Source: Spirochaetia bacterium (lineage in GTDB: Bacteria; Spirochaetota; Spirochaetia; UBA9216). From it: a DNA stretch of 64,000 bases. The DNA lies in contig OY776510.1 of assembly GCA_963675665.1 (NCBI GenBank), positions 4,480,001 through 4,544,000 on the forward strand. The letters run 5' to 3'. Position 1 is the stretch's first letter, and each line of letters begins with the position of its first letter. The position numbers and the translations under genes were made by a program. The notes beneath the pieces were generated by a model. That model made no database searches. It worked only from the letters and a program-made list of their open reading frames with translations, and was not told the DNA's origin. Shown here piece by piece: positions 13,538 to 44,824 of this stretch.

Positions 13538-13679
13538 GTATAACGACAATTTTAGCTGCCTGGCGGCGCGCGTCTTCGCGCGCATTGGCGCGGTTTTAGA
13601 GCGTAGGCACGATCAGTGCCGTAGCGTCTCCGCTAAAACCGTGACAATAGCCAGGACTGCTACAAATTTCATGTTTTGT
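13538..13679 (-). repeat. attC site (C22)
   Basis: GTATAAC...GTTTTGT family repeat. Confidence 0.9.
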
Positions 13680-14308
13680 GTAACGACCCCATACCCACTA
13701 CTTTCTTTTATCTTAACAGTATCCTTTTTCTTACTTTGCCCCTTCTTTACTCAGCGTTCTCGCTGGGTTCATCCCAATTAATCATACAACAGTTTCATCT
13801 TTGCAGGTATTTTTATTTTCACTCAATAACTTCTACTCTGTTTTTTAGCATTTCTTTTCTTCATTTCCTTTTTATTCACTTTCAACATTTGGCCGCTAAA
13901 ATCTTTATACAGGTGAGCTGTAGTTTTTTTGAGAAGCTTAAAATAGGACCTATAGATACGAAATAGTTTTTTTCAATGCAAGGATATTATTTCATATAAC
14001 CGAACAGGGCTCCAGAAATGTTCATCATCTTTATGGGATATAAATCAAACAAGATTTCATAGAAAGAAACAGCTTTGGTTACTACGCTCTATTCTTAAAG
14101 ACACAAATACATTTCACGTCGTAGGTTATGGGAAATTATCGAAAACAGAATAATGAACTCCATAAACTTCTTTATACTATCTGCAAATTATTATTTTATC
14201 AAAGAACTAAATTAAACATTTTTTTTAATATGTTTTTCACTTATGTGTCATTCTAAACGTGAACCGTATAAAATCTTTATTTTAGCCCAATTCTCGTTTA
14301 CACAAAAC
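13673..14308. other. Gene-less cassette, long form (C22)
   Basis: No credible ORF; homologous to C1, C7, C8, C17 with ~145 bp extra. Confidence 0.8.
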
Positions 14309-14447
14309 GACAATTTGAGCTGCGCCCTCGATCCTGGAGCGAAGCGGAAGGAATTGGCGTGATTCTGGAGTGTAGCGCGATCAGCGCGAAACGTCTCCGC
14401 CAGAATCATGACAATAGACGGCGACTGCTCCAAATTTTTTGTTAAAT
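14302..14447 (-). repeat. attC site (C21)
   Basis: ACAAAAC...GTTAAAT family repeat. Confidence 0.92.
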
Positions 14448-14460
14448 GCCGCTTCTTACC

Positions 14461-14485
14461 AGACCGCACGGCGGAGTCAAGGTCT
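14461..14485 (+). repeat. Trailer hairpin (C21)
   Basis: AGACCGCACGGCGGAGTCAAGGTCT. Confidence 0.9.
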
Positions 14486-14522
14486 GGTTCTATTCTTTTA
14501 AAATAGAATTACATCAATTAAT

Positions 14523-15773
14523 TCAAATAGACCATTCATCAGTAGTACCTTCATCACGATATTTAAAAATATCAGGGATATCATTATCCTCCAATAACTC
14601 TCGACAATGTTCTCTTTCAATAATAATTCCATCAAAGCTTCTTCCCGGTGCATTTCGTCCTTCAGTAGCAATAGCAAGAATTCTGTTAACATTTTCTAAA
14701 TTATCGTTTTTATCCATAGATTTACATAATGAACAACTCATCTGAAGCAGTTTTTCTTGTCTTATTTCTCTATTCCTCTCATTAGTAATTATAAATAAAT
14801 ATGCAATTGTTTTAATCGGAAGCGAAAAATATCTTAATTCTTCTTTATCAGTCGATTCATATTTCTTTCGAAATGTTTCATCGATTATTATACGTTGAGT
14901 TCTTGTCAACTTTGACAGTTCTCCGACGATAGTCAGCATACTTTCAATAGCTAGTTTTTGTTCATCAGGATTTTGCTCTAAATAATAATCAAGATGCGAA
15001 GAAAATTCATTGATCATTAACTCAACAATTGTAAGTCTAAATTTTTTTCTATCTCTCTTTTTTATTTCTTCTAATTTAGTCTTTCTATATTCCTCCCAAA
15101 TACCCGGTTGTAAAATTACTTTTCCTACTATTAAATTCTTAATTTCTTCAATTTTATCGTAATTGGAACACCATAAAGCTAAGAAATCCAATTCATTTAC
15201 ATAATCCTGAACTGTTCGTTTTAATATTTCTTTTCTATCATTTAAAAAGTTTACAAAATCACCATAAGTATTAATCTCAGTTAATAAAACATATAAATCT
15301 CTAAGAATAAAAGCATGAATATCTATATCTCGATGTGTTTCATGTTTTAATGGTAATTGATATCTAAAGTCTGGATCTTCATATAATTCATCATTAACAT
15401 TTACTGTTACAATTCCGATTTTATTTTTTATTAATGTCCATGGAATTTCAAATTCGACATCAGTTATAGTCTTTAGTTTAACATCTACATCTCTGTTCGC
15501 TGCATTCAGTGTTCTATTTAATTGTTTTTTTGCTTTCTCATATTTATTTAACACTCTTTTAGCATGTATTTGATCTGCCTTAGAAACTTCAATATCAATT
15601 GATTTTGATTGAATCGTTATAATTGTGTCTCCCGCAAGAATTAATATATCAGTCAATTCAACTTTTTTACCTGCTTCGGTATTAGTATATGGAGATTTGT
15701 ATACTAAAGCTTTTCCAAACATTCTCGAGCATATTAATTCCAGAGTATCTTCGGCGAATTTTCCATGATCCAT
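14523..15773 (-). CDS. Protein with N-terminal NERD/PD-(D/E)xK-like nuclease domain (C21)
   Basis: GKFAE...ELTDILIL...IQSKS. Confidence 0.65.
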   Translation of the reverse strand: MDHGKFAEDTLELICSRMFGKALVYKSPYTNTEAGKKVELTDILILAGDTIITIQSKSIDIEVSKADQIHAKRVLNKYEKAKKQLNRTLNAANRDVDVKLKTITDVEFEIPWTLIKNKIGIVTVNVNDELYEDPDFRYQLPLKHETHRDIDIHAFILRDLYVLLTEINTYGDFVNFLNDRKEILKRTVQDYVNELDFLALWCSNYDKIEEIKNLIVGKVILQPGIWEEYRKTKLEEIKKRDRKKFRLTIVELMINEFSSHLDYYLEQNPDEQKLAIESMLTIVGELSKLTRTQRIIIDETFRKKYESTDKEELRYFSLPIKTIAYLFIITNERNREIRQEKLLQMSCSLCKSMDKNDNLENVNRILAIATEGRNAPGRSFDGIIIEREHCRELLEDNDIPDIFKYRDEGTTDEWSI

Positions 15774-15808
15774 ACTCTATCCTTTCTCAAATACTTTTCA
15801 ATATAATA

Positions 15809-15831
15809 GCCCGTCGGCCGGAGGTCCGGGC
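15809..15831 (+). repeat. Leader hairpin (C21)
   Basis: Exact 23-nt core. Confidence 0.9.
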
Positions 15832-15906
15832 TATTTCTATTCTTAATCATTTTAACCCCAATCTCAAAAACTGACTAACAAAATTATTGGACTAATTATG
15901 GCGTGC

Positions 15907-16044
15907 ATTTAACGACCAAATCAGTTGCAAAATCGGCCGAGTCTTCGAGGCTTGGCGCAGTTCTGGAGTGAAGCGCGATCAGCGCTGAACGTCTCCGCCA
16001 GAACTGTGACAAAGATTTTGACAACTGCATTTGTCATGTTAAAT
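15907..16044 (-). repeat. attC site (C20)
   Basis: Identical to 879-1016. Confidence 0.92.
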
Positions 16045-16057
16045 GCCTTTTCTTATC

Positions 16058-16082
16058 AGACCGTACGGCGGAGCCAAGGTCT
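16058..16082 (+). repeat. Trailer hairpin (C20)
   Basis: AGACCGTACGGCGGAGCCAAGGTCT. Confidence 0.9.
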
Positions 16083-16132
16083 GATTTCTTTTGATATTTA
16101 TATTTTATAGCCAAGCTTCAAGTTCATTTTAT

Positions 16133-17506
16133 TCAATTTTCACACTGATTTATAAACTTTTCAACATATTTATAAATACTCTCATATTTTCTTGACTCAC
16201 TATCCTCTGATAAAAATATTTTAAATTCTTCTCTTGCTAAATTAAAATCTTCATGCTTGTAAAAGAATAACAAGCCTAAACAATAATGCAATTGATATTT
16301 CTCAGGCTCCTCATCTAATATCCCATATATAAATTTTTCACATTGTATATGTACATTATTAGCAGCTCTATTTCTAAAACCTAATTTATAAAAATTATAA
16401 GCTTTATCTAACTTCTCTTCATAAGCAAATAAAAATGCTTTACTATATGCCCATGTATAATCGCCGGTTGCTCTCTTCTTTGCTTCAAATAATCTTTCAT
16501 GTGCAACTTTTAAATTTCTTTCATGAAAATAAAAAATTGCACTAAGGGTACACATATCATAGCTCAAAGGACATAATTTTTCAGCTTCATGTACTTTTTC
16601 ACCTATTTTCTCCCAATTACATTCCCCCAAATATTCATTTATTGCAAAGAAGTGTATTTCCGCCATTAGAAATTCTTTATTATTTTTCTGTATACGTTCA
16701 AAATTGGTTTTTAATATTTCAGTATCACTTTTAATTTTGATTTGATTACATTTCTTATGCAATTTATATGCTATATCAATAAATCCATTATATGCACATG
16801 CTAATCCCAAAATATACAATGAGCCATAAGAAAATATAAGTGAATTCAGGCTGAAGCCAGTAAGTTCTTGATCATATGAAATCATTGAATTGCGAGGAAA
16901 TACTGAATACATATCTTGAATAATATTATTTTTCCTATCCAACGGTATAGTTTTATGAGAAATAGACTCATTAAATTCAATTACGTAATGCTCCTTACCA
17001 TTTTGAATTCTATTCCTTGCAACACCATATAAAATAAATTTTGCTTTACTCTTATCATGATATTTCTTTGCTAACAATTTATTATCATTAATTTTCTCAG
17101 AATGATATTCAGACAATGTAATCACTTTAATTTTCTTATCTACACTTTTTATACTTCTTTCAATTTCATCAAAAAAATCTTTTTTAATTTTCTCTCTAAC
17201 CTTATCATTATCTGTTCTAATCGCAAACAAAACTCCAATATCATTTTTTCTAAATTTTGGGATTCTCCTTAAATAAAGCCATATAAAAATGAGAAATATA
17301 TCTACTATACAAAAAACAATAATATTATTTATTATTAAATTCTTATTCGTTGATAATACTTCCAAAGCTGGTATATTATAATCATCAATGGATCCATACA
17401 ATTTGATTATCCAACTTATAAATAATAAGAATTGAACCCCTGTAATTGAAATTTTCCTTTCAAGGAGTAGTTTCATTCTGCGCAATGTATCATAACTATC
17501 TAACAT
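16133..17506 (-). CDS. Membrane-anchored TPR-like protein (C20)
   Basis: Differs from 1105-2478 by one residue (KIKSD vs KIESD). Confidence 0.75.
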   Translation of the reverse strand: MLDSYDTLRRMKLLLERKISITGVQFLLFISWIIKLYGSIDDYNIPALEVLSTNKNLIINNIIVFCIVDIFLIFIWLYLRRIPKFRKNDIGVLFAIRTDNDKVREKIKKDFFDEIERSIKSVDKKIKVITLSEYHSEKINDNKLLAKKYHDKSKAKFILYGVARNRIQNGKEHYVIEFNESISHKTIPLDRKNNIIQDMYSVFPRNSMISYDQELTGFSLNSLIFSYGSLYILGLACAYNGFIDIAYKLHKKCNQIKIKSDTEILKTNFERIQKNNKEFLMAEIHFFAINEYLGECNWEKIGEKVHEAEKLCPLSYDMCTLSAIFYFHERNLKVAHERLFEAKKRATGDYTWAYSKAFLFAYEEKLDKAYNFYKLGFRNRAANNVHIQCEKFIYGILDEEPEKYQLHYCLGLLFFYKHEDFNLAREEFKIFLSEDSESRKYESIYKYVEKFINQCEN

Positions 17507-17545
17507 TTTATAATCTCCGATTTTATTCTTAATAATTCTATCATC

Positions 17546-17568
17546 GCCCGTCGGCCGGAGGTCCGGGC
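17546..17568 (+). repeat. Leader hairpin (C20)
   Basis: Exact 23-nt core. Confidence 0.9.
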
Positions 17569-17639
17569 GATTTCTCTTACTTATTTTACACCCAGAACTC
17601 GAAAACGGCTAACAATTTCATCGAAACATCCCTAAGTGC

Positions 17640-17778
17640 ATTTAACGACGATTTGAGTAGCAAAATCGGCCGAGTCTTCGAGGCTTGGCGCAGTTCTGGA
17701 ACGCAGCGCGATCAGCGCGGAGTGTCTTTAGCCAGAACTGTGACAAAGATTTTGGCTACTCCAAATCTTTTGTTATAC
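17640..17778 (-). repeat. attC site (C19)
   Basis: ATTTAAC...GTTATAC family repeat. Confidence 0.92.
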
Positions 17779-17813
17779 AGGTTTCTTTATTTCTTGATAT
17801 TTTTCCAATTCAT

Positions 17814-18968: not shown

Positions 18969-18974
18969 ATAGTT

Positions 18975-19003
18975 ATTCTACCACTGAAAGCATATTATTG
19001 CAA
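18975..19003 (-). promoter_or_regulatory. Cassette-borne promoter, predicted leaderless transcript (C19)
   Basis: TTGCAA-17-TAGAAT (TG extension), 6 nt to ATG, no SD. Confidence 0.65.
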
Positions 19004-19048
19004 CTTTTTATACTTTCTAAAAGTATATTTTTCCGATTTCTTAACTCT

Positions 19049-19187
19049 GTATAACGACGATTTGAGTAGCGAAACCGGCCGAGTCTTCGAGGCTTGGCGC
19101 AGTTCTGGAACGTAGCGCGATCAGCGCGAAGTATCTTTAGCCAGAACTGTGACAAAGGTTTTGACTACTCCAAATCTCTTGTTATAA
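19049..19187 (-). repeat. attC site (C18)
   Basis: GTATAAC...GTTATAA family repeat. Confidence 0.92.
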
Positions 19188-20516: not shown

Positions 20517-20585
20517 TTGTCCCTTCTTTTATAGTAATATCTTTTACTGTAACATATATTACTATATCATGCAAGTCTGAATTGT

Positions 20586-20728
20586 TTATAATGACAATTT
20601 TAGCTGCCTGGCGGCGCGAGTCTTTCGAGCGCATTGGCGCGGGTTTAGAGCGTAGGCACGATCAGTGCCGTAGCGTCTCCGCTAAAACCGTGACAATAGC
20701 CAGGACTGCTACAAATTTCATGTTTTGT
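20586..20728 (-). repeat. attC site (C17) with mutated R' (GTT>ATT)
   Basis: TTATAAT instead of TTATAAC at left end. Confidence 0.88.
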
Positions 20729-21212
20729 GTAACGACCCCATACCCACTACTTTCTTTTATCTTAACAGTATCCTTTTTCTTACTTTGCCCATTCTTTACC
20801 CAGCGTTCTCGCTGGGTTCATCCCAATTAATCATACAACGATTTAATCTTTGCAGGTATTTTTATTTTTTACACTATAACTTCTTCTCTGTTTCTTAGCA
20901 TTTTACTTCTTCATTTCCGTCATTTTCATTTTCAACATTTGGCCGCTAAAATTTTATGCAGGTTAGCTGTGATTTTTTTGAGAAGCTTAAAATAGAACAT
21001 AGATATGAATACGTTTCACGTCGGAGGTTATGGGAAACTATTGAAAACAGGATGATTAACTCCATAAACTTCTTTATTTAACCTGCAAATTATTATTTTA
21101 TCAAAGAACTGAATCAAATATTTTCTTTTTAATATATTTTTCACTTATGTGTCATTCTAAACGGGAACCGTATAAAATCTTTATTTTAGCCCAATTCTCG
21201 TTTACACAAAAC
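20722..21212. other. Gene-less cassette, short form (C17)
   Basis: ~490-bp conserved non-coding family member. Confidence 0.85.
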
Positions 21213-23440: not shown

Positions 23441-23447
23441 CAATTAA

Positions 23448-23791: not shown

Positions 23792-23799
23792 GGTTCAAT

Positions 23800-24635: not shown

Positions 24636-24774
24636 GCTTAACGACGATTTGAGTAGCAAAATTGATCGGCGTCTTCGCCGAATTGGCGCGATTCTGGAGT
24701 GAGGGCCATTGCCCGAACGTCTTTAGCCAGAATCGTGACAATAAATTTTGACTACTCCAAATCTCTTGTTAAAT
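24636..24774 (-). repeat. attC site (C13)
   Basis: GCTTAAC...GTTAAAT family repeat. Confidence 0.92.
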
Positions 24775-24812: not shown

Positions 24813-25374
24813 GGTTTTCTTAAATATTATTAATAATTGAAACTTTGATTATCTAATTCTTGAGTTTTAATATATCCACCATAGACCCATCCATTAATAT
24901 TTTCTTTTCTAATATTTACCCATGGAAAATCCATATTATCCAATTTATATGATATTGGTGTAACTCCCAACATTTCAATTTCTTCATTCTCTTGCAATAA
25001 TCCAAGAATATCTGAATCAGTACTAGGTAGTTTTCTAATTCTAAGGTTTTTTGTATTACAATATCCTTTATAAGGTTTTTGATATTGATAATCAATATTA
25101 CGTGCTCCCATACTATCCATAACTCTTACAAATTCCGAATTTTCTCCATGCAACTTGATTGCAATAGCCAATGGGGACATATAATCATTAAGTAAATTAA
25201 CTGTTGTTATTTTTGCTTTATTTTCAATTAAGATTTTAAAAGCTTTAATATTGTTTTTCTTTATAGCAAATACTAATGGATTTTCAAAAGATACTTGTAT
25301 ATCAAAGTTATTTACATTAAATCCATATTTTATACACAAATCAGTATAGAGATCATTTTTTATTCTTATTGACT

Positions 25375-26649
25375 CATAGCTGTCCAAAATAAGGACTATT
25401 AATAGCCTGAATCCCTGGTTATAATGAATTGAGCGGGCAAGCTTAAATCATTACAACGGAAGGAAAACAGGCAATGAGTTATAAGAATAGCATTTTAAAT
25501 CAGATACTTCAAATCATTCCGAGACATGAATTTGAAAGATCTGTCAGAAAGTATAAAGGAGATTTTGCTTCAAAAGGATTCTCCTGTTGGGAACAATTTG
25601 TTTCAATGCTGTTTGCCCAATTTACAGGACAGACCGGACTTAGAGGCATAGAAACAGCATTGGATTCGATTAAAAACATGCTTTATCATTTGGGGGTAAA
25701 AAAGATTAAACGCTCAACACTTTCCTATGCAAATAACAACAGACCCTCAGAAATTTATGAAAATGTATTCAATAACCTGCTGACAAAGATCCTTAAAATG
25801 AAAAGGTCTCATAAGCATAGATTTAAAAATCCGCTGTACAGTGTTGATGCGACAACCATCGATTTATGCCTGTCAGTATTTCCATGGGCGAAGTTTAGAA
25901 AGAATAAAGGCGGAATCAAACTTAATGTAAAACTTGATCACAGCGGATATATTCCGGACTTTGTATCTGTTACAACAGCTCAAACCCATGAGCTTAATTC
26001 ACTCAAGAAAATGAAATTCAATAAAGGTGATGTAGTTGCATTCGATCGGGCCTATACAGATTTCAAATTATTTGCAAGTTATTGTATTGCAGGCATTTAT
26101 TTTATTACTCGTATGAAAAAGAATGCAGATTATAAAGTTTTTCAAAGAAATAATGTTTCAAAATATGAAAATATTTCATCAGATCAAATAATTGAAATGC
26201 GAGGATACTACACCAGCAAGAAGTGTCCACTCCAATTACGGCGAATTAGAATAAAAGATCCGGAAACAGGAAAATATATTGTAATTCTTACAAATCAGCT
26301 TGATTGGGCACCTACAACAGTTGCTGCTGTCTATAAGGACAGATGGCAGATAGAAATATTCTTCAAAACAATCAAACAGAACCTGAAAATAAAGAAGTTT
26401 TTTGGAACGACGAAAAATGCAGTAATGACTCAGATCTGGATAGCATTGATAACTCATCTGATGCTGCAATATCTGAAGATGTTATCTTCCGGTGGATGGA
26501 CTCATTATTCGCTTATGAAATTGCTTCCATCAATCCTGACGACCAGAAAAGATCTCTGGAATATTCTGAATAAACTACCGCCGCCCGGCAGAAATGAGCC
26601 AGGCTTAAAACTTCAAATGGAGCTGTTATGATTGTTTTGGACAGCTATG
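25375..26649 (+). mobile_element. IS4-family insertion sequence, copy 3
   Basis: Same IRs; 9-bp TSD TTATTGACT. Confidence 0.95.
25474..26631 (+). CDS. IS4-family DDE transposase
   Basis: Identical protein to other copies. Confidence 0.95.
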   Translation: MSYKNSILNQILQIIPRHEFERSVRKYKGDFASKGFSCWEQFVSMLFAQFTGQTGLRGIETALDSIKNMLYHLGVKKIKRSTLSYANNNRPSEIYENVFNNLLTKILKMKRSHKHRFKNPLYSVDATTIDLCLSVFPWAKFRKNKGGIKLNVKLDHSGYIPDFVSVTTAQTHELNSLKKMKFNKGDVVAFDRAYTDFKLFASYCIAGIYFITRMKKNADYKVFQRNNVSKYENISSDQIIEMRGYYTSKKCPLQLRRIRIKDPETGKYIVILTNQLDWAPTTVAAVYKDRWQIEIFFKTIKQNLKIKKFFGTTKNAVMTQIWIALITHLMLQYLKMLSSGGWTHYSLMKLLPSILTTRKDLWNILNKLPPPGRNEPGLKLQMELL

Positions 26650-26947
26650 TTATTGACTCATAAAATAAATAATTTGCTCTATTAATTTCACCAGGCATGA
26701 TATCCAAAGGTGATGCACCTTTATCAAGTAATAAATTTACAATTTCAATATTTTTATTGCTTGCTGCTATAAATATTGGTGATATTCTATCCCAAAACCA
26801 ATATTCTTCTACCCCCTTAACATCCGCCCCATTTCCTATTAAAAATTTAATAATTTCATTACTATTATTTTCTAAAGCATATTTAAATACTTTAGAATCC
26901 ATATCTGGATTAAAATTATATTCGCCTTTATAATTATTATATAATGT

Positions 26948-28222
26948 CATAGCTGTCCAAAATAAGGACTATTAATAGCCTGAATCCCTGGTTATAATGA
27001 ATTGAGCGGGCAAGCTTAAATCATTACAACGGAAGGAAAACAGGCAATGAGTTATAAGAATAGCATTTTAAATCAGATACTTCAAATCATTCCGAGACAT
27101 GAATTTGAAAGATCTGTCAGAAAGTATAAAGGAGATTTTGCTTCAAAAGGATTCTCCTGTTGGGAACAATTTGTTTCAATGCTGTTTGCCCAATTTACAG
27201 GACAGACCGGACTTAGAGGCATAGAAACAGCATTGGATTCGATTAAAAACATGCTTTATCATTTGGGGGTAAAAAAGATTAAACGCTCAACACTTTCCTA
27301 TGCAAATAACAACAGACCCTCAGAAATTTATGAAAATGTATTCAATAACCTGCTGACAAAGATCCTTAAAATGAAAAGGTCTCATAAGCATAGATTTAAA
27401 AATCCGCTGTACAGTGTTGATGCGACAACCATCGATTTATGCCTGTCAGTATTTCCATGGGCGAAGTTTAGAAAGAATAAAGGCGGAATCAAACTTAATG
27501 TAAAACTTGATCACAGCGGATATATTCCGGACTTTGTATCTGTTACAACAGCTCAAACCCATGAGCTTAATTCACTCAAGAAAATGAAATTCAATAAAGG
27601 TGATGTAGTTGCATTCGATCGGGCCTATACAGATTTCAAATTATTTGCAAGTTATTGTATTGCAGGCATTTATTTTATTACTCGTATGAAAAAGAATGCA
27701 GATTATAAAGTTTTTCAAAGAAATAATGTTTCAAAATATGAAAATATTTCATCAGATCAAATAATTGAAATGCGAGGATACTACACCAGCAAGAAGTGTC
27801 CACTCCAATTACGGCGAATTAGAATAAAAGATCCGGAAACAGGAAAATATATTGTAATTCTTACAAATCAGCTTGATTGGGCACCTACAACAGTTGCTGC
27901 TGTCTATAAGGACAGATGGCAGATAGAAATATTCTTCAAAACAATCAAACAGAACCTGAAAATAAAGAAGTTTTTTGGAACGACGAAAAATGCAGTAATG
28001 ACTCAGATCTGGATAGCATTGATAACTCATCTGATGCTGCAATATCTGAAGATGTTATCTTCCGGTGGATGGACTCATTATTCGCTTATGAAATTGCTTC
28101 CATCAATCCTGACGACCAGAAAAGATCTCTGGAATATTCTGAATAAACTACCGCCGCCCGGCAGAAATGAGCCAGGCTTAAAACTTCAAATGGAGCTGTT
28201 ATGATTGTTTTGGACAGCTATG
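26948..28222 (+). mobile_element. IS4-family insertion sequence, copy 4
   Basis: Same IRs; 9-bp TSD ATATAATGT. Confidence 0.95.
27047..28204 (+). CDS. IS4-family DDE transposase
   Basis: Identical protein to other copies. Confidence 0.95.
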   Translation: MSYKNSILNQILQIIPRHEFERSVRKYKGDFASKGFSCWEQFVSMLFAQFTGQTGLRGIETALDSIKNMLYHLGVKKIKRSTLSYANNNRPSEIYENVFNNLLTKILKMKRSHKHRFKNPLYSVDATTIDLCLSVFPWAKFRKNKGGIKLNVKLDHSGYIPDFVSVTTAQTHELNSLKKMKFNKGDVVAFDRAYTDFKLFASYCIAGIYFITRMKKNADYKVFQRNNVSKYENISSDQIIEMRGYYTSKKCPLQLRRIRIKDPETGKYIVILTNQLDWAPTTVAAVYKDRWQIEIFFKTIKQNLKIKKFFGTTKNAVMTQIWIALITHLMLQYLKMLSSGGWTHYSLMKLLPSILTTRKDLWNILNKLPPPGRNEPGLKLQMELL

Positions 28223-28503: not shown

Positions 28504-28642
28504 ATTTAACGACGATTTGAGTAGCAAAATTGTTCGGCGTCTTCGCCGAATTGGCGCGATTCTGGAGTGAGGGCCATTGCCCGAACGTCTTTAGCCAGAA
28601 TCGTGACAATAAATTTTGACTACTCCAAATCTCATGTTTTAC
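28504..28642 (-). repeat. attC site (C12)
   Basis: ATTTAAC...GTTTTAC family repeat. Confidence 0.9.
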
Positions 28643-29251
28643 GTAACTGCCCATTATTGCAGTTCATCTTTTAACGATATTGGGACTATTACAACTAACC
28701 GCCCCAAATATATACCCAGCGATCAGCTGGGTTTCCTTGTTACATCTTTTTATCAGGTTACTTCTTTGCTGGTCAACGATGATATATCAATATTGCATTT
28801 TAACACGTTTCATTAACATTCTTATATTATTTATTTTTGATTATTCTGTTCGCGCCATATAAATTTTTCTACAGGATGAGAATAGTTATTACAGATACGT
28901 TGCAGTTTATTCCAGGTTTTTTTAAGTTATACAATTCTTATAATTATCATATCATCATTTTCCCAAGGGTTTTAAGAATGTTCATCAGCCTTATGCATTA
29001 GATATATTAAGTATTGTGATTCAAAACCAGATATTTTGTAAAATCGAAACTTTTTATAGGTTAGTTGGCTATCTATCAATACAATTGGAACGCATCTGAA
29101 ACATGATGTAGTTCAATTATTCTCTTTCTTAGACCTGCAAACTTTCGTTTTATCAAAGAACTGGTTTATCTATAATATGTTTTTTGATATTTTCATCTAC
29201 TGTTAGCTGCATAACTTCTGTTTTCAGCCTAAAATGCAGTTTAGGTAAAAC
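28636..29251. other. Gene-less cassette, divergent long form (C12)
   Basis: No credible ORF; colinear short motifs shared with C22. Confidence 0.75.
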
Positions 29252-29383
29252 GACGATTTGAGTAGCAAAATTGTTCGGCGTCTTCGCCGAATTGGCGCGA
29301 TTCTGGAGTGAGGGCCATTGCCCGAACGTCTTTAGCCAGAATCGTGACAATAAATTTTGACTACTCCAAATCTCTTGTTAAAT
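29245..29383 (-). repeat. attC site (C11)
   Basis: GTAAAAC...GTTAAAT family repeat. Confidence 0.92.
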
Positions 29384-32935: not shown

Positions 32936-33078
32936 ACATAACGACAATTTTAGCTGCCTGGCGGCGCGAGTCTTTCGAGCGCATTGGCGCGGTTTTAGAG
33001 CGCAGGCACGATCAGTGCCGTAGCGTCTCCGCTAAAACCGTGACAATAGCCAGGACTGCTACAAATTTCATGTTTTGT
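32936..33078 (-). repeat. attC site (C8)
   Basis: ACATAAC...GTTTTGT family repeat. Confidence 0.9.
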
Positions 33079-33561
33079 GTAACGACCCCATACCCACTAC
33101 TTTCTTTTATCTTAACAGTATCCTTTTTCTTACTTTGCCCATTCTTTACCCAGCGTTCTCGCTGGGTTCATCCCAATTAATCATACAACGATTTAACCTT
33201 TGCAGGTATTTTTATTTTTACACTATAACTTCTTCTCTGTTTCTTAGCATTTTACTTCTTCATTTCCGTCATATTCATTTTAAACATTTGGCCGCTAAAA
33301 TTTTATGCAGGTTAGCTGTGATTTTTTTGAGAAGCTTAAAATAGAACATAGATATAAATACGTTTCACGTCGGAGGTTATGGGAAACTATCGAAAACAGG
33401 ATGATTAACTCCATAAACTTCTTTATTTAACCTGCAAATTATTATTTTATCAAAGAACTGAATCAAATATTTTCTTTTTAATATATTTTTCACTTATGTG
33501 TCATTCTAAACGGGAACCGTATAAAATCTTTATTTTAGCCCAATTCTCGTTTACACAAAAC
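33072..33561. other. Gene-less cassette, short form (C8)
   Basis: ~490-bp conserved non-coding family member. Confidence 0.85.
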
Positions 33562-33697
33562 GACAATTTTAGCTGCCTGGCGGCGCGAGTCTTTCGAGCG
33601 TATTGGCGCGGGTTTAGAGCGTAGGCACGATCAGTGCCGTAGCGTCTCCGCTAAAACCGTGACAATAGCCAGGACTGCTACAAATTTCATGTTTTGT
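33555..33697 (-). repeat. attC site (C7)
   Basis: ACAAAAC...GTTTTGT family repeat. Confidence 0.9.
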
Positions 33698-34181
33698 GTA
33701 ACGACCCCATATCCAATACTTTCTTTTATCTTTATATTATTCCTTATCTTTTTTTCACTCTTCTTTACCCAGCGTTCTCGCTGGGTTCATCCCAATTAAT
33801 CATACAACGATTTCATCTTTGCAGGTATTTTTATTTCTTACACCATAACTACTGTTCTGTTTCTTAGCATTTTACTTTTTCATTTCCGTCATTTTCATTT
33901 TCAACATTTGGCCGCTAAAATTTTACGCAGGTTAGCTGTGATTTTTTTGAGAAGCTTAAAATAGAACATAGATACGAATACGTTTCACGTCGGAGGTTAT
34001 GGGAAACTATCGAAAACAGGATGATTGACTCCATAAACTTCTTTATTCAACCTGCAAATTATTATTTTATCAAAGAACTGAATCAAATATTTTCTTTTTA
34101 ATATGTTTTTCATTTATGTGTCATTCTAAACGGGAACCGTATAAAATCTTTATTTTAGCCCAATTCTCGTTTACACAAAAC
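33691..34181. other. Gene-less cassette, short form (C7)
   Basis: ~490-bp conserved non-coding family member, tandem with C8. Confidence 0.85.
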
Positions 34182-35487: not shown

Positions 35488-36999
35488 TCAGTTAAGATAA
35501 ATATTCCAGGGAAGAAGCTCCTGCCAATCTTCACTGGACTTCATCAACGGAGCTTCGGTAAATACTTTTCTCAGATAAACATAAGGGTTGAGATCGTTTT
35601 GCTTTGCTGTTTCAACAAGTGAATAAATCCCGCAAGAACTCTCAGCACCTTTTGGGCTGCCGGCAAACAACCAGTTTTTCCTGCCCAACACAAACGGCCT
35701 GATAGCATTTTCACAGGCATTATTATCCGGAGTCAAATAAGGTGATTCAAGATAATTTACAAGTTTGCTCCATTGCCCAATTGTATATGATATCGCTTTT
35801 CCGAGTTCAGTCGAAGGAACAACATTATGCTGCCTTTTCTCAAGCCAGGAACTGAACTTGGCCAATAGCGGTTCTGCCTTCTTTTTTCTTTCTGCAAGAA
35901 ACTCGGGTTCACTTAAGTTTTTAGCTCTGAGTTCATTCTCTATCAAATACAGTTTCTGAATATATTTCAGCCCTTCAGCAGCACTGCCAGGTTTCTTGGA
36001 TACTCTTGATGCATCAAAGAATTTCCGTCTTGCATGAGCAAAACAACCGGCATGAATTATATCTGGATAATCTTTCAACGCTGTAACATATGCTTCATAA
36101 CCGTCAGTCTGAAGATAGCCGCTGAATCCGTCCAGAAAACTGCGAATATTCTTAGAACCCCTCGTTTCATGATATTCATATAGAATTGCAACTTGCCCCG
36201 GAGGCCCCCCTCGGGCAAGCCACATATAGGAGTTTCGAGTAGCAGGCCTATCCGGTTCATTGTGAACCTGTATTCTCGTTTCATCCATCTGCATAACCGA
36301 ACCGGTTTTCAGATGTTCTTTCATCAGTTCAAGCAGGATTATAAGAGCTTCATATGCCTGTCTTTGCCAGTTGCTCATATCCTGTCGGCTTATGCTGATC
36401 CCTATTCGCTCAAATCTCTTTTCCTGCCGGTAGAAAGGCAAATGATCTACATATTTATTTACAAGCAAAAATGCAAGGAGCTCGGGTGTTACTATGCTTT
36501 TGGGAAAGATTGTGGGAGCAGTCGGGGCTATCCGCACCGCAGGTTTATCTTCATCTCCGCTGCCTTCACAAGTCTTACAGGCATATTTGGGTCTGATGGT
36601 TCTTTCTACCCACATCTGTTCCGGTACAACTTTTATTCGTTCGGATATTTCTTCGCCTATTCTAACCAGTTCTGCTCCGCAAGCGCATTTCTTCTCTTCT
36701 TCGGGTATATCAATAAGGATTTCTTCACGGGGAAGATTCTCGTTTATCTTCTTTCGACCAGGTTTCTTTTTGGTATAGGATTCTACCTTCTGAGTTTCAG
36801 ATTCTTCTTCGGGAGCAATATCCGGTTCACTATCAAAAAGTAATATCTGAGCGGCTGTGTCTTTCTCGCTGGAACGATTATATTTCTTGAACAATTCAAG
36901 CTTGAAACGCTCTTCCAGCGCCTGGTATTTCGTTGCCCATTTTCGTTCAATATCTTTGATGTATTGCTGTACTTCTTCAGGAAGCTTTTCAACATCCAT
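35488..36999 (-). CDS. tnpC: IS66 DDE transposase TnpC
   Basis: MDET, QTDGY, CFAHARRKF, DNNACENAIRP, GRKNWLF. Confidence 0.95.
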   Translation of the reverse strand: MDVEKLPEEVQQYIKDIERKWATKYQALEERFKLELFKKYNRSSEKDTAAQILLFDSEPDIAPEEESETQKVESYTKKKPGRKKINENLPREEILIDIPEEEKKCACGAELVRIGEEISERIKVVPEQMWVERTIRPKYACKTCEGSGDEDKPAVRIAPTAPTIFPKSIVTPELLAFLLVNKYVDHLPFYRQEKRFERIGISISRQDMSNWQRQAYEALIILLELMKEHLKTGSVMQMDETRIQVHNEPDRPATRNSYMWLARGGPPGQVAILYEYHETRGSKNIRSFLDGFSGYLQTDGYEAYVTALKDYPDIIHAGCFAHARRKFFDASRVSKKPGSAAEGLKYIQKLYLIENELRAKNLSEPEFLAERKKKAEPLLAKFSSWLEKRQHNVVPSTELGKAISYTIGQWSKLVNYLESPYLTPDNNACENAIRPFVLGRKNWLFAGSPKGAESSCGIYSLVETAKQNDLNPYVYLRKVFTEAPLMKSSEDWQELLPWNIYLN

Positions 37000-37043
37000 A
37001 TCTTAAGTCTAGCATTTTTTGATCCGAGGGTAAATTCCTTATA

Positions 37044-37427
37044 CTATGTTATTTCAGAATATTTTAATTCTGTATGAGCATTCCAGAAATCTATACCCTT
37101 TAGAAGCATGTCAAGCTCAGTCTGCTTCAGCTCTATTGCATCCTGATTATTTTTCGGCCATGGAAAGCGATGTTTTTCAAGTTTCTTCTGCCATAAACAA
37201 AACCCGTTTTTATCCCAATAGAGAGCTTTCAAATTCCGTCTCTCTTTATTGCAAAATAAAAATAGATTGCCTGATAGTGGATCTGATTCAAGCTCATCAG
37301 CTACTATCATAGATAAGCCATTTATTGCTTTTCTCATATCGGTACTGCCTGGTTTTATGAATATCTTTATCTTGGAGAAATCAGGAAACACTTTTCGTTT
37401 CCACCAGGTCCATCGCTGCCATTGCAT
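37044..37427 (-). CDS. tnpB: IS66 accessory protein TnpB (true start probably GTG near 37391)
   Basis: TDMRKAINGL, LFLFCN, LYWDKNGFCLWQKKLE. Confidence 0.92.
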   Translation of the reverse strand: MQWQRWTWWKRKVFPDFSKIKIFIKPGSTDMRKAINGLSMIVADELESDPLSGNLFLFCNKERRNLKALYWDKNGFCLWQKKLEKHRFPWPKNNQDAIELKQTELDMLLKGIDFWNAHTELKYSEIT

Positions 37428-37695
37428 CTTCTCTGCTGAATCCAGGCTGCAGGATTATTTTCCAACCACCGTGTTCGAGGATTATATTTTTCTTCACAGC
37501 AGGTATTTCAAGCATTGGCAATTTTACGAAACCCGGTTTTTGTGTTCTCTGTTTCTGCCGTTCTTGTTTGGTCCAGTTATAAAACGTGGTTGGCCGTATA
37601 TCATTCTCACGGCAGAACTGACCTCCGGACATCCCGGACTCACGCCATTCTGTGAGATAGTCTGCTCGCTCTTTAGCGGTATATTGCTTGTTCAT
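37381..37695 (-). CDS. tnpA: IS66 accessory protein TnpA
   Basis: WRESGMSGGQFCRE...TFYNW HTH. Confidence 0.88.
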   Translation of the reverse strand: MNKQYTAKERADYLTEWRESGMSGGQFCRENDIRPTTFYNWTKQERQKQRTQKPGFVKLPMLEIPAVKKNIILEHGGWKIILQPGFSREDAMAAMDLVETKSVS

Positions 37696-38004
37696 TATTT
37701 CCTCCAGCTTCCCGGAGTTTAATAGATTTCAGAGTTCAACATAAGGTGCGGTTGTTTTGACGGTTACAGAATTTCTCGTATTTCTATCATTTTAAGACTG
37801 TTTTCGGCCCTTGGGAACTATATTTTATAAATAATTCTATCATGCTCAACTTGATATAGACAATTGTTTCGTAATTCCTATAATTCTTTTAGGAGTATCA
37901 TCTTAATCTGGATATCATCTTTTCTCTTTTTCTTAATAAATCACAGCTGTACACTATTCTATTAGAAATTTGTTGATCAAGTTACAAGCTGTTACTCTAT
38001 TTAT

Positions 38005-38140: not shown

Positions 38141-38153
38141 GCCGTTTCTTACC

Positions 38154-38178
38154 AGACCGAACGACGGAGTCGAGGTCT
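38154..38178 (+). repeat. Trailer hairpin (C5)
   Basis: AGACCGAACGACGGAGTCGAGGTCT. Confidence 0.9.
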
Positions 38179-38211
38179 GGTATTAATATAAATTACAATA
38201 TAATCTAATAT

Positions 38212-40452: not shown

Positions 40453-40483
40453 TTAAATTCCTATTTATAATAATACATTCTTA

Positions 40484-40506
40484 GCCCGTCGGCCGGAGGT
40501 CCGGGC
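40484..40506 (+). repeat. Leader hairpin (C5)
   Basis: Exact 23-nt core. Confidence 0.9.
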
Positions 40507-40575
40507 TATTTCTTACTAATTTTACACCCAGCAACAGAAATATCCTAACATTTTTATTATTCTCCCATTTCGTGC

Positions 40576-40714
40576 ATTTAACGACGATTTGAGTAGCGAA
40601 ACCGGCCGAGTCTTCGAGGATTGGCGCAGTTCTGGAACGCAGCGCGATCAGCGCGGAGTGTCTTTAGCCAGAACTGTGACAAAGGTTTTGACTACTCCAA
40701 ATCTCTTGTTATAC
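40576..40714 (-). repeat. attC site (C4)
   Basis: ATTTAAC...GTTATAC family repeat. Confidence 0.92.
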
Positions 40715-40721
40715 GGATTTT

Positions 40722-41012
40722 CTATACTTTTTCTAATAATTTCCCAGATACATATTTATGCAATATCATTGATACTAGGGTTTGGTATGGTAAACCTTCC
40801 TCCATTGCTTTTATCTTTAAATTCTTTAAATCTCTTTCTGATATTCTTATATTCATTCTTTTATCTTTTTTCATTGTAGCTTCAGCATATTTTTTTGCCT
40901 GGAGCTTGTATTCTTCATTTTCTTCTATCTCTTCCCATTCACCATTTTCAAGTGAAATTATTAAATCGCGTTCTTCTTCATCTATCGGAGTAAATATTTT
41001 TTTCTCTTTCAT
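40722..41012 (-). CDS. CopG/RHH-type antitoxin (C4)
   Basis: KDKRMNIRISERDL...EGLPYQTLVSMILHKY. Confidence 0.85.
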   Translation of the reverse strand: MKEKKIFTPIDEEERDLIISLENGEWEEIEENEEYKLQAKKYAEATMKKDKRMNIRISERDLKNLKIKAMEEGLPYQTLVSMILHKYVSGKLLEKV

Positions 41013-41296
41013 TCCTTTCCTCCATTCTTCAATAATTTCTTAGTATATTCCCTACTCGGGTATATTGTTTTTAGAAATATCTCTTTATCTTCTTTATTTT
41101 CAACAAAAGGCACCACATAAATATAATCATTATAGTTAATTAGATAAATTTTTTGATTTCCATATTTTTCTTCATTTGGATTTTTTAATACCTTTACAAC
41201 CCTTCCTTCAGAAATACACAATATAATTTCTTCAAATGATATATTGCGTTGTTCCTTCAGAATTTCATTCTTTTCATCATTCCAATTATAGGTCAT
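41009..41296 (-). CDS. BrnT-like toxin (C4); start revised to ATG 41296
   Basis: YNWNDEKNEILKEQRNISFEEI...YVVPFV...FLKTIYPSR; the TTG at 41332 is the -35 box. Confidence 0.85.
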   Translation of the reverse strand: MTYNWNDEKNEILKEQRNISFEEIILCISEGRVVKVLKNPNEEKYGNQKIYLINYNDYIYVVPFVENKEDKEIFLKTIYPSREYTKKLLKNGGKE

Positions 41297-41302
41297 GATA
41301 TA

Positions 41303-41332
41303 AAGATAATCCCCCAGTGTGCCTTTTGTCAA
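41303..41332 (-). promoter_or_regulatory. Cassette-borne promoter, predicted leaderless transcript (C4)
   Basis: TTGACA-18-TATCTT, 6 nt to ATG. Confidence 0.55.
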
Positions 41333-41433
41333 TACACTATATTTCTTAAATTTTTACGAAGTCTCGATTTAACCACGATTGAACCCCAAAACCGTGAATC
41401 CTATCAATATTATTTTATCTAATTCTTAATTCC

Positions 41434-41567
41434 GTATAACGACGAAATCAGTAGCGAAACCGGCCGAGGTCTTCCGAGGATTGGCGCGGTTCTGGAATGA
41501 GCGATCAGCGAATGTCTCCGCCAGAACCGTGTCAAAGGTTTTGACTACTGCATTTCTTTTGTTATGT
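41434..41567 (-). repeat. attC site (C3)
   Basis: GTATAAC...GTTATGT family repeat. Confidence 0.92.
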
Positions 41568-41575
41568 AGAGACTT

Positions 41576-42295
41576 CTAATTTTTTATATAATTTTCAATT
41601 ATTTCTTTCATTAAATCGAAGATAGAAACATCCTTTTCAGAAGCGATTTTAATCAAACTTGAATAGTTTTCAATTTCATCGCCTTGCCAGACCAAAGACA
41701 AACGCCTTTCATTTATTAGTGCAATATGCTCATATTCTTTAGGATCTGCCCAATAACACTTTTTACATATTTCTTCATCCTTTTCATTATTCCAATTATG
41801 ACAATGCTCACAAGACCATGATTTCGCTCTATTACATGAAGCACACAATAAAAGGAAATCATTAATATTTTCTACTTCATAATCATCACCAGAAACTTCA
41901 AAAGGCACTTTATGATCGATTTGAAAGTATCTTATTTCAAGATGAGTGTTACAAACAGCACAAGTTCCTTCATATTTTGCAAATAAATCATTTTTTAATT
42001 TTTTAGAAAAGTTCCTTCTACCTTTCTTATTCTTATTATCAATTTTAGATAAATCACCAAATTTATAAGCTGCTATATTCCTGCCATCAGATGATTTTAC
42101 CTTATATGTTTCTAACGGAATTCCTAATTCTCTAACATCTCGTGCAGCGCGCGGGGGATGATTATAACCATATTTTTTTTCTAATTGTTCAGTTGTAATA
42201 AAACCATTTTCAATAATATGGTCAAGAACCACTCTTGCTCTCTTATTTCTAACATTTCTTATAATTTCTTTTAATTCATCAGGAAAATCTTTCAT
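41576..42295 (-). CDS. HNH endonuclease, putative type II restriction enzyme (C3)
   Basis: CAVC...IDHKVP...LLCASCNRAK; directly downstream of MTase. Confidence 0.85.
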   Translation of the reverse strand: MKDFPDELKEIIRNVRNKRARVVLDHIIENGFITTEQLEKKYGYNHPPRAARDVRELGIPLETYKVKSSDGRNIAAYKFGDLSKIDNKNKKGRRNFSKKLKNDLFAKYEGTCAVCNTHLEIRYFQIDHKVPFEVSGDDYEVENINDFLLLCASCNRAKSWSCEHCHNWNNEKDEEICKKCYWADPKEYEHIALINERRLSLVWQGDEIENYSSLIKIASEKDVSIFDLMKEIIENYIKN

Positions 42296-42298
42296 ATC

Positions 42299-43219
42299 TC
42301 ATCCAAATAGCGTCATTTGCTTATTTTCTTTATAAATACTTTTAAAAATAGTATCTTCAATTTCTAATTTATCTATATTAGAGAAAATGTTTTCAGATAA
42401 ATAAATTGATTCATAGGTCATATCAGTGTTATTATTTAGTGTAGCTTGAGATGAACGCCCCACCTCTAATTCTATTCTTTTTAGTTTCAAATGTTCAGGT
42501 AATAATTCTCCATATTTTTTATTACCTAATCTTCCATCATAACTAATAATGTATTTAATATTTTTATCATTTAATATCTCTAAAGATTCTATAAATTCGT
42601 TTCGACCTAATCCATTCATATATCTATTATCTCTTTTATTAGAAACGCCTTCATATGGAGGGTCCATATAAACAAGATCCTTTTCATTTGCTTTAAAAAT
42701 AATATCTCTATAATCGGTACTAAAAATTTCAGTTTTTCCATTCAAAATCGAAGAAGCATTCAATATTTCATTTGCCATTCTCTTTGGATGTTTTCCTTTT
42801 CTTCGATTATCAGGGCTTTGGTTAAATTCGCCTTTTGTATTATATCGTACAGCAGCTTTAACACATCTAGCTAATAAATATAGAAGATATCCAGACTCCT
42901 TTGTCTCATTAAATTTATCTCGAATTAAATTATAATAATTTTTTTCATCACCTAATTGTTCATTCCAGTAATATGAATATTTTTCGATTATATCATTTGG
43001 ATTATTTATTATAGCGCCCCATAAATCCATCAACGGTTTGTTAATATCATTGATTATTACTTTATCAACTTTATTATAATAAAGCGATGCAATACTTATT
43101 GCAGCTGATCCAGCAAATGGCTCTATCAATGAATGTATGTTGTTTGGGTAGTAATCTATTATAGTTTGTGCTAACGCTCTTTTACTACCCTGATATGGTA
43201 TAGGTTGTGGCATCTTCAT
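42299..43219 (-). CDS. Dam/D12-class N6-adenine DNA methyltransferase (C3); start revised to 43219
   Basis: PYQGSK, EPFAGS, IND, YMDPPY. Confidence 0.92.
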   Translation of the reverse strand: MKMPQPIPYQGSKRALAQTIIDYYPNNIHSLIEPFAGSAAISIASLYYNKVDKVIINDINKPLMDLWGAIINNPNDIIEKYSYYWNEQLGDEKNYYNLIRDKFNETKESGYLLYLLARCVKAAVRYNTKGEFNQSPDNRRKGKHPKRMANEILNASSILNGKTEIFSTDYRDIIFKANEKDLVYMDPPYEGVSNKRDNRYMNGLGRNEFIESLEILNDKNIKYIISYDGRLGNKKYGELLPEHLKLKRIELEVGRSSQATLNNNTDMTYESIYLSENIFSNIDKLEIEDTIFKSIYKENKQMTLFG

Positions 43220-43225
43220 AATCTT

Positions 43226-43254
43226 ATTATATCCCATATTTTACTATTTTGCAC
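43226..43254 (-). promoter_or_regulatory. Cassette-borne promoter, predicted leaderless transcript (C3)
   Basis: GTGCAA-17-TATAAT, 6 nt to ATG 43219. Confidence 0.55.
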
Positions 43255-43294
43255 TACACAAATGTTAACCTAATACATTTTCTCCAAGTATTCT

Positions 43295-43433
43295 ACATAA
43301 CGACGAAATAAGTAGCGAAATCGTTCCGCGTCTTCGCGGAATTGGCGCGATTCTGGAGAGAGGGCCATTGCCCGAACGTCTTTAGCCAGAATCGTGACAA
43401 TAGATTTTGACTACTTCATTTCTCTTGTTATCA
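43295..43433 (-). repeat. attC site (C2)
   Basis: ACATAAC...GTTATCA family repeat. Confidence 0.92.
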
Positions 43434-43567
43434 AGAGCTTTTTTCTTAATATTCTTTTCTTCTTTCTTTATCTCTTCTATTTCTTATTTCCCACTTTTTC
43501 GCTTCCACTGGGGTTATTATACTCCTTGTTTCACTTCCATTGGGATTTAAAATTTCTTATTTCTTTC

Positions 43568-44020
43568 TTAATATCTAGAATTCTCTTTTTTCCATTCCAT
43601 TATATATTCTTGTTCTCCAGTATCATTATCAATTGATTCTGATATTATTCTAAAATCTTTTTTCTTATAAAATTCTATGCTTTTTACATTCTTTTTATAT
43701 ACTTTTAATTGTATTCTCTTTCGAATTTCTTTCACATGATTTATTAATTCACTACCAATTCCTAAACCTTGCATATTTGTCCTTATAAAGATTGCCGCAA
43801 GATATTCATCCATCATGGATACAAATCCCAAAAGTGTATTATTATTTTTAGCGATGTAAGTTTCAGACATTGGAATATATTTTTCTTTCATCTGCGATTT
43901 ATTTTCATTCCAATATTCATCCGGAATAAAATCATGTGCTTTTATTGATGACTCATACCAAATTTCAATTATTTCATCTAAATCCTTATCACTTAATTTT
44001 TGCATTCTTATATCTTTCAA
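43568..44020 (-). CDS. GNAT N-acetyltransferase (C2)
   Basis: AHDFIP..YW, LAAIFI...QGLGIGSELI, N..SIEFYKK.DF. Confidence 0.92.
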   Translation of the reverse strand: MKDIRMQKLSDKDLDEIIEIWYESSIKAHDFIPDEYWNENKSQMKEKYIPMSETYIAKNNNTLLGFVSMMDEYLAAIFIRTNMQGLGIGSELINHVKEIRKRIQLKVYKKNVKSIEFYKKKDFRIISESIDNDTGEQEYIMEWKKENSRY

Positions 44021-44198
44021 ATAATTTCCTCATGAAATCTTTTTTATTTACGAAGTCTCTATTCCCCGCCCTAATGCTCGCTCCCACTGGTGTTTTCCTT
44101 TCAGTTTAACTTCCACTAGATTCTTCCGATTCGTTCCCCAAACGTTACTCATTTCCATTACTTTTATTCAATCATTTTTCAACTACAATTCTGGTTCT

Positions 44199-44340
44199 TG
44201 ATAACGACAATTTTAGCTGCCTGGCGGCGCGAGTCTTTCGAGCACATTGGCGTGATTCTGGAGTGGAGCGCGATCAGCGCGAAACGTCTTTAGCCAGAAT
44301 CATGACAATAGCCAGGACTGCTACAAATTTCATGTTTTGT
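44199..44340 (-). repeat. attC site (C1)
   Basis: TGATAAC...GTTTTGT family repeat. Confidence 0.9.
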
Positions 44341-44824
44341 GTAACGGCCCCATACTCACTACTTTCATCTACATTCATAATTATCCTTTTTCTTACTTTG
44401 CCCCTTCTTTACCCAGCGTTCTCGCTGGGTTCATCCCAATTAATCATACAACGATTTCCTCTTTGTAGGTATTTTTATTTTTAAACAATAACTACTGTTC
44501 TGTTTCTTAACATTTTACTTCTTCATTTCCGTAATATTCATTTTAAACATTTGGCCGCTAAAATTTTACGCAGGTTAGCTGTGATTTTTTTGAGAAGCTT
44601 AAAATAGGACATAGATACGAATACGTTTCACGTCGGAGGTTATGGGAAACTATCGAAAACAGGATGATTAACTCCATAAACTTCTTTATTCAACCTGCAA
44701 ATTATTGTTCTATCAAAGAACTAAATCAAATATTTTCTTTTTAATATGTTTTTCACTTATGTGTCATTTTAAACGGGAACCGTATAAAATCTTTATTTTA
44801 GCCTAATTCTCTTTTACACAAAAC
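44334..44824. other. Gene-less cassette, short form, first position (C1)
   Basis: Family homology ends exactly at AAC 44824. Confidence 0.85.

Follow-up and report, generated by a model that had tools for sequence, protein, structure and literature searches.

We analyzed a 64,000-nucleotide stretch of DNA, hereafter the window, from a Spirochaetales-like bacterium (contig OY776510.1 of assembly GCA_963675665.1, positions 4,480,001 to 4,544,000). It contains a sedentary chromosomal integron whose cassette array lies to the left of attI and is read on the minus strand. The array comprises 28 complete cassettes, named C1 to C28, of which C1 is the first, against attI. Six of them (C1, C7, C8, C12, C17 and C22) appear to carry no gene and form a single family, which is the subject of this study.

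Organization of the integron

The integrase gene and the insertion point of the array are located as follows.

45041-46318, plus strand: integron integrase gene intI, with Phage_integrase and SAM_4 (SAM-like) domains
44824-44870, no strand assigned: attI junction, with the crossover at 44824/44825; C1 abuts it

Thousands of intI homologues bear the name integron integrase, and among named homologues the nearest belong to Spirochaetales. An in-frame TAG at 45266-45268 breaks the gene at a position occupied by W in a 98%-identical, full-length homologue of 418 amino acids, so that intI is a pseudogene in the present genome. On the attI side, the junction carries GTTTTAC at 44840-44846, inverted with respect to the ACAAAAC supplied by C1, and TAAAAAC at 44849-44855; both motifs face that ACAAAAC (region 44818-44855).

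We mapped 28 attC sites of 128-142 nt in the array. The 5' end of every cassette complements its own R'' box over 7-11 nt, and this pairing validates the 28 cassette boundaries. At all 28 sites, the bottom (plus) strand folds more stably than the top strand.

Six cassettes form one amplified family

The family includes five close copies, C1, C7, C8, C17 and C22, and the divergent C12. Two of the six, C12 and C22, are long forms that contain an additional internal segment.

44205-44823, minus strand: C1, in the attI-proximal slot; attC at 44205-44340 and body at 44341-44823
33561-34180, minus strand: C7; attC at 33561-33697
32942-33560, minus strand: C8, directly downstream of C7; body 93.5% identical to that of C7
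28510-29250, minus strand: C12, divergent long form; core GTTTTAC
20592-21211, minus strand: C17, 99% identical to C8
13544-14307, minus strand: C22, long form; body of 628 nt
13954-14098, minus strand: segment of about 145 nt in C22, collinear in C12 and missing from the four short copies; coordinates taken from alignment ends

An earlier note on this stretch had placed six related bodies at 44334-44824 (C1), 33691-34181 (C7), 33072-33561 (C8), 20722-21212 (C17), 13673-14308 (C22) and 28636-29251 (C12), and the bodies do lie at these positions. A search of the window with a profile of the six copies recovers exactly those six, with E values from 1e-155 to 2e-82, the next match being at E=9. 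The attC map and the complementarity of each cassette to its own end bear out both the proportion given there, six of the 28 complete cassettes, and the position of C1 in the first slot.

The bodies of the five close copies are 88-99% identical. C8 and C17 share this highest identity of 99% though they stand nine cassettes apart, whereas C7 and C8 are adjacent and only 93.5% identical, and thus do not represent a recent tandem duplicate. C12 is about 52% identical to the other five and collinear with them throughout. Its global alignment score is 45.5, whereas 300 dinucleotide shuffles score -36 ± 8.5 and never exceed -7.5, which establishes that C12 is truly related to the close copies.

The copies are separated by about five small indels of 1-2 nt and by the single 145-nt segment. 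The earlier note had stated that stops and indels differ between copies; open reading frames (ORFs) do vary in length and frame, as described below, but the indels are few. In C22, the 145-nt segment is flanked by the imperfect direct repeats TATTTGTGTC and TATTTCGTATC. Because the segment is present in both C22 and C12 and is bordered by these repeats, we take the long form to be ancestral and regard the 483-nt form as derived from it by deletion. The short form would have spread to four sites after this deletion.

The only other recurring cassettes are C20 and C28, which are 99.9% identical over 1601 nt, and C18 and C27, which are paralogues with 70% identity. Of all the cassettes in the array, the gene-less one has been amplified most. 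Its copies have diverged by 1-12% (48% for C12) and hence do not originate from one recent duplication. Since they are also cassette-precise and scattered through the array, we infer that the integrase excised them and inserted them elsewhere, or that they were repeatedly captured from a cassette pool.

The ends of the family coincide exactly with cassette boundaries. A group IIC-attC intron or a transposable element was considered and rejected in view of these ends and of the lack of both an Rfam match and an ORF. We searched for relatives outside the array using blastn with C22 against plasmid and phage collections, and no match was found. A scan of genome contigs with the 28-nt island common to the six copies (see below) returned six loci, four in Sulfurimonas/Sulfurimonadaceae, one in Neobacillus and one in Desulfosporosinus, the source genome not being among the matches. 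These loci are treated as chance, as the likeness ends beyond a motif of 28-39 nt. Compared with the rest of the window, the bodies have no complementarity of 17 nt or more or similarity beyond two chance-level matches.

The family has no conserved coding capacity

In every copy, all six frames are interrupted by at least four stops. The five close copies vary at 84 of 483 columns, which are distributed over the three codon phases as 25, 29 and 30. The view that no ORF is conserved in the family is thus upheld. The longest sense ORF encodes 39 amino acids; in C12, the longest has 52 and runs into attC. The 39-amino-acid ORF, the only one that several copies have in common, is open in C1, C7, C8 and C17 with four non-synonymous versus two synonymous differences. 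In C22 it is cut to 22 amino acids, and C12 lacks its start.

Blanco et al. define a cassette as gene-less when it has no annotated gene and no ORF of more than 210 bp (70 amino acids) starting from ATG, GTG or TTG. By mechanical use of this rule, antisense ORFs exceed 70 amino acids in C22 (96) and C8 (89), and others run through attC in C1 (73) and in C17 and C22 (81-82). The antisense ORFs lie on the pyrimidine-rich strand, and their length and frame change from copy to copy. No relatives of them were found in two protein collections: word-indexed searches gave none, and an exhaustive search gave one weak match to a 907-amino-acid protein (E=7.8e-4), which was disregarded. A Pfam search with 67 stop-to-stop pieces gave nothing better than E=0.0057, and when C12 was compared with the other copies frame by frame, the similarity was equal in all frames and specific to none. 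Origin from a decayed known gene is rejected on these last two results. Neither a conserved small ORF nor a decayed known gene, the two findings that the earlier note held to speak against a non-coding family, was detected; judged by its sequence, the family is gene-less.

It is extremely improbable that the family encodes a very small protein or leader peptide. The candidates would be the 39-amino-acid sense ORF, open in four copies, and a short ORF of 12-13 amino acids in the long forms, C22 and C12, the two of which share the ATGAACATT at its beginning. The substitutions in the former, its truncation in C22 and its missing start in C12 are at odds with a conserved product, and the latter is common to C22 and C12 in its first three residues only and is deleted from the four short copies.

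Cassette ends and attC sites

Three features of the cassette ends had been put forward as peculiar to the family, namely an atypical core, an extended terminal complementarity and a dedicated attC subtype. The core is indeed distinctive. All six members have an R' core that reads GTTTTGT or GTTTTAC, with a T at position 4, compared with none of the 22 other cassettes, all of which have GTTA. The family core departs from the GTTRRRY consensus and differs by one base from GTTATGT-type cores such as that of C9; the Vibrio paper of Blanco et al. (PMC11014356) likewise uses a non-RRRY consensus, GTTATGT. The unusual GTTTT core also resembles the motifs of attI itself.

The terminal complementarity extends over 11 nt in five copies and includes a run of seven (10 of 14 positions) in C12, as had been claimed, but it is an array-wide property, since C6 and C23 also reach 11 nt and C2, C3, C4 and C18 reach 10 nt. 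The attC sites of the array are long, branched mosaics of exchangeable modules. In the five close copies, the outer arms are common to all and the family's own, and to this extent a dedicated subtype exists. The inner module does not follow this pattern: that of C1 is 81-83% identical to those of C7, C8, C17 and C22, which are 97-99% identical to one another. Moreover, the inner modules recur in gene-bearing cassettes, that of C1 in C10 and C27, and that of the other four in C14 and C16. Recurrence of family attC modules was also noted in the gene-bearing C9.

The six family attC sites are 133-137 nt long, and their bottom strands fold with energies of -39 to -50 kcal/mol. The family mean of -42.7 kcal/mol is ordinary when compared with -40.2 ± 3.2 kcal/mol for the other cassettes, and a hyper-stable family attC was rejected for this reason. 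As a mosaic of ordinary folding energy that travels with any duplicated cassette, the attC site is no sign of a special status. Among the features called special, only the T at core position 4 is family-specific.

Two members have attC sites that stand apart. That of C12 is of the same type as those of its neighbors C11 and C13, and the three sites (28510-28642, 29251-29383 and 24642-24774) are nearly identical, which suggests local homogenization. In C17, the R' core (20590-20592) has ATT in place of GTT, seen as AAT on the plus strand, and this altered core has probably locked the gene-less C17 to the ATPase cassette C18.

Conserved islands, folding and transcription signals

The family bodies contain several short conserved elements, the main ones being listed here.

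44695-44722 (C1), minus strand: main island, the longest and best conserved, AGTTCTTTGATA.AA......TTTGCAG, without variation among the six copies
34052-34079, 33432-33459, 29135-29162, 21083-21110 and 14181-14208, minus strand: the other copies of this main island, also invariant
44411-44430 (C1), 33767-33786 (C7) and 28714-28732 (C12), no strand assigned: conserved hairpin ACCCAGCG-N4-CGCTGGGT, about 70 nt before attC
44761-44790 (C1), plus strand: antisense sigma-70-like match GTGTCA-18-TAAAAT, found in all five close copies

Comparison of C12 with the other five copies reveals a perfect match of 15-16 nt amid a background identity of about 52%. Further islands kept between them include ACCTGCAAAG and the GC-rich hairpin, CCCAGCG-N4-CGCTGGG, which in C12 is terminator-like on both strands. 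Three copies of a AACCTGCAAA motif, one of them inverted, are kept together with the hairpin even in C12. Around the hairpin, a stretch of 48 nt has a single variable column among the five close copies, compared with up to 18 in the next 48 nt.

The 3' half of the main island, TTTGCAGGT, is the reverse complement of a second island, ACCTGCAAA, with at most one mismatch per arm in all six copies. The 9-bp helix that the two islands could form has one uncompensated mismatch in each of the three divergent copies. No covariation was seen in the consensus fold, for which the covariation term is positive (+3.85) and thus penalizing. Whole-body folding gives z-scores of -1.4 on the minus strand and -2.1 on the plus strand. 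For the sub-region from the island to the hairpin, minus-strand z-scores range from -0.1 to -1.2, while plus-strand z-scores range from -2.2 to -3.6 in the four short copies and are -1.1 and -1.3 in the long ones. No Rfam family matches at gathering score, and only noise is obtained at E≤10 with C22 and at E≤0.5 with the whole window. As a positive control, the leader hairpin of other cassettes in the array (see below) does show compensatory pairs. The proposal of a structured RNA made in the earlier note thus finds little support in the Rfam search, the whole-body z-scores and the covariation term.

A sense sigma-70-like match, TTGATT-17-AATAAT (TTGATA-17-TAGTAT in C22), lies inside the main island in all five close copies. 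The antisense match is localized 34-39 nt from the cassette start in these copies, and in C1 it faces intI, about 260 nt upstream of the intI start. No terminator-like site was found on the minus strand of the five close copies.

Possible roles of the family

We tentatively regard the six copies as one non-coding cassette lineage with a cis-acting, promoter-type role. If the family has an effect, it would be a cis effect on transcription, like the one demonstrated by experiment for promoter cassettes of Vibrio and Treponema. The AT-rich body has a putative sense promoter in its best conserved island, from which transcription would run through attC into the next cassette; read-through would be expected because the five close copies have no minus-strand terminator match. 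The second putative site, near the 5' end, would be directed to the upstream cassette or, in C1, to intI. Such a role is plausible in light of published precedent and of the consensus-like sites predicted in the five close copies.

A number of observations weigh against this proposal. The promoter-like matches agree with the consensus at just 9 of 12 positions, and their counts are near shuffle expectation in four of five scans (4 versus 4.5, 3 versus 2.3, 4 versus 3.1 and 6 versus 3.8), C17 alone exceeding it with 5 matches versus 1.6 ± 1.3. Background-corrected scoring revealed no outstanding promoter site, and C12 has kept neither the sense nor the antisense site. Of the five non-family cassettes downstream of a family member, four lack the leader described in the next section, compared with 13 of 22 array-wide, which is no meaningful enrichment. 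Rate heterogeneity along the five close copies is marginal (permutation P=0.052, 0.029 and 0.039 in three tests), and the body evolves faster than attC in four copies. Finally, no current cassette mobility is expected, since intI is a pseudogene. The evidence for a selected function of the family is weak. The earlier proposal of a selected function (as structured RNA or ssDNA, mobile promoter or insulator) or a selfish cassette finds partial support. The family is real, non-coding, most amplified and present in the first slot, but its terminal complementarity, its attC and the attC folding energy are not special.

It is nearly as likely that the family is a neutral relic or a selfish cassette with no host function, abundant because it is an efficient or lucky integrase substrate or because it is common in the pool. 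The 84 variable columns are spread over nearly the whole body with no codon phase, and the small indels, the one large indel and a body less conserved than attC in four copies all fit such a passenger, as do the weak folding z-scores and the lack of covariation. Its spread went on despite the loss of 145 nt, and no relatives were found in any collection searched. On the other hand, C12 still keeps collinear islands at about 52% identity, including the 15-16-nt perfect block and the hairpin, and attC folding no better than that of other cassettes gives no evidence of a hyper-recombinogenic site. In addition, excision readily removes useless cassettes, according to an argument made in the Vibrio paper (PMC11014356). 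A cassette-borne non-coding RNA gene, acting in trans or on neighboring cassette mRNAs, seems rather unlikely. Its product would be a sense transcript from the island to the hairpin, of about 290 nt in short and 430 nt in long copies, or an antisense transcript. The complementarity of the two best conserved islands, a third similar motif (AACCTGC) between them, the conserved hairpin with its terminator-like form in C12, and the plus-strand folding of the four short copies are in line with such a gene, for which sRNA-Xcc1 of Xanthomonas cassettes is a precedent (PMC8876359, PMC12444791). It is difficult to reconcile with the uncompensated helix mismatches, the penalizing covariation term, the minus-strand scores, the plus-strand scores of the long copies, the absence of an Rfam match at any threshold tried, and the lack of complementarity of at least 17 nt to the rest of the window beyond chance. 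The compensatory pairs of the leader hairpin indicate that the method is able to detect them in this array.

Two further possibilities involve the same elements. The family might be a mobile non-coding regulatory module specific to the present integron lineage, although we consider this improbable. Its GTTTT core mirrors the GTTTTAC/AAAAC of the attI side, so that a copy in the first slot would rebuild a symmetric attI, and expression of the array or of the integrase could be set by the three AACCTGCAAA motifs and the hairpin, either through alternative pairings of the RNA or as a platform to which proteins bind. Very unlikely, in our estimate, is an insulator or terminator cassette that would block transcription through the array in one or both directions. 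The conserved GC-rich hairpin before attC, its scoring as a terminator on both strands in C12, and a weak plus-strand terminator-like site in C1 and C7, CGCAGGTTAGCTGTG followed by a T run, would suit this function; however, in the five close copies the main hairpin goes uncalled and neither strand has a T run there, calls of the weak plus-strand site are limited to two of the six copies, and terminator-like sites are lacking on the minus strand of the five close copies.

Other features of the array and its surroundings

The cassette array (1-44824) has a G+C content of 31%, compared with 46% for the chromosomal flank (46319-64000). To the right of intI lie the housekeeping genes nadA, nadB-like, nadC, tyrS and hisS-like.

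Nine cassettes with unrelated ORFs (C5, C11, C13, C20, C21, C24, C25, C26 and C28) share a leader of about 110 nt.

17526-17645 and 40462-40581 (examples), minus strand: shared leader GTTAAATGCAC..TGTTAG..GGGTGTAAAATAAG..GCCCGGACCTCCGGCCGACGGGC, at cassette starts

The leader contains an invariant 23-nt hairpin whose basal pairs are compensatory (AU in five, CG in two and UG in one); it has no Rfam match. C28, which is identical to C20, was left out of the leader fold. These nine cassettes also share a second hairpin, CAGACC..CTCCG.CG...GGTCTG, located after the ORF stop and just before attC (for example at 1017-1063 and 38141-38187). As a T-rich run follows it on the plus strand, this hairpin resembles a terminator of antisense transcription.

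Four near-identical insertion sequence copies, each encoding a 385-amino-acid DDE_Tnp_1/DUF4372 transposase, were observed at 3073-4330, 9240-10497, 25374-26631 and 26947-28204. They sit inside C27, C25 and C13, the last of which contains two. An IS66-family element is found in C6, at about 35488-37700. The duplicates C28 (885-2617) and C20 (15913-17645) are 99.9% identical and encode a 457-amino-acid ORF without Pfam domain. Many cassette genes are of toxin-antitoxin or defense-like types, including ParE/Phd, Gp49/HTH, a STAND NTPase, Schlafen AlbA_2 and a pair formed by an HNH protein and a D12 methylase.

Relation to known gene-less cassettes and significance

Large chromosomal integrons were long held to be mostly silent past their first cassettes, and promoter-bearing gene-less cassettes are now known to activate neighboring cassettes. 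In the Vibrionaceae, Blanco et al. (2024, PMC11014356) describe gene-less cassettes as a notable share of Vibrio superintegrons and report sense-strand promoter activity for most of 29 such cassettes; some Vibrio examples come from degenerated genes. These cassettes resemble the present family in having their own attC, no credible gene and an AT-rich composition, with lengths of 491-666 bp there and 619-764 bp here, and in belonging to an array that is large, sedentary and chromosomal and whose integrase is divergent. They differ in that the host here is Spirochaetales-like and promoter activity is only predicted, in that a single family with its own GTTT core makes up six of 28 cassettes, and in that a trace of an ancestral gene was not found here by Pfam on the 67 stop-to-stop pieces.

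The Treponema cassettes found in the oral metagenome (Tansirichaiya et al. 2019, PMC6557892) are ORF-less cassettes of spirochaete integrons that act as promoters. The features likened are promoter activity on either strand and an effect on the integrase proposed for the first slot, where a review discusses an ORF-less cassette whose antisense promoter increases expression of the integrase (PMC8876359); the corresponding sites here are only predicted, and intI here is divergent. The sRNA-Xcc1 cassette of Xanthomonas (Chen et al. 2011) is comparable as a recurring, cassette-carried non-coding product that moves between arrays (PMC8876359, PMC12444791), the RNA being putative in our case. As summarized in PMC12444791, that cassette also carries symE, with both oriented against Pc, whereas the present family has no Rfam match and weak structural support. 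Duplicated cassettes of sedentary chromosomal integrons, such as C20 and C28, are likewise cassette-precise repeats within one array, but the gene-less family has more copies (five plus one) that are 1-12% diverged.

On the best reading, the family would thus fit the known kind of gene-less or promoter cassettes, and its novelty appears to lie in the host group, in how far it has been amplified and in its GTTT core. The present finding adds an example to this kind and no new principle. Since a single non-coding family makes up a fifth of the array, in a phylum whose canonical integrons have been little studied, it would offer a convenient test case for whether such cassettes are selected regulators or successful passengers.

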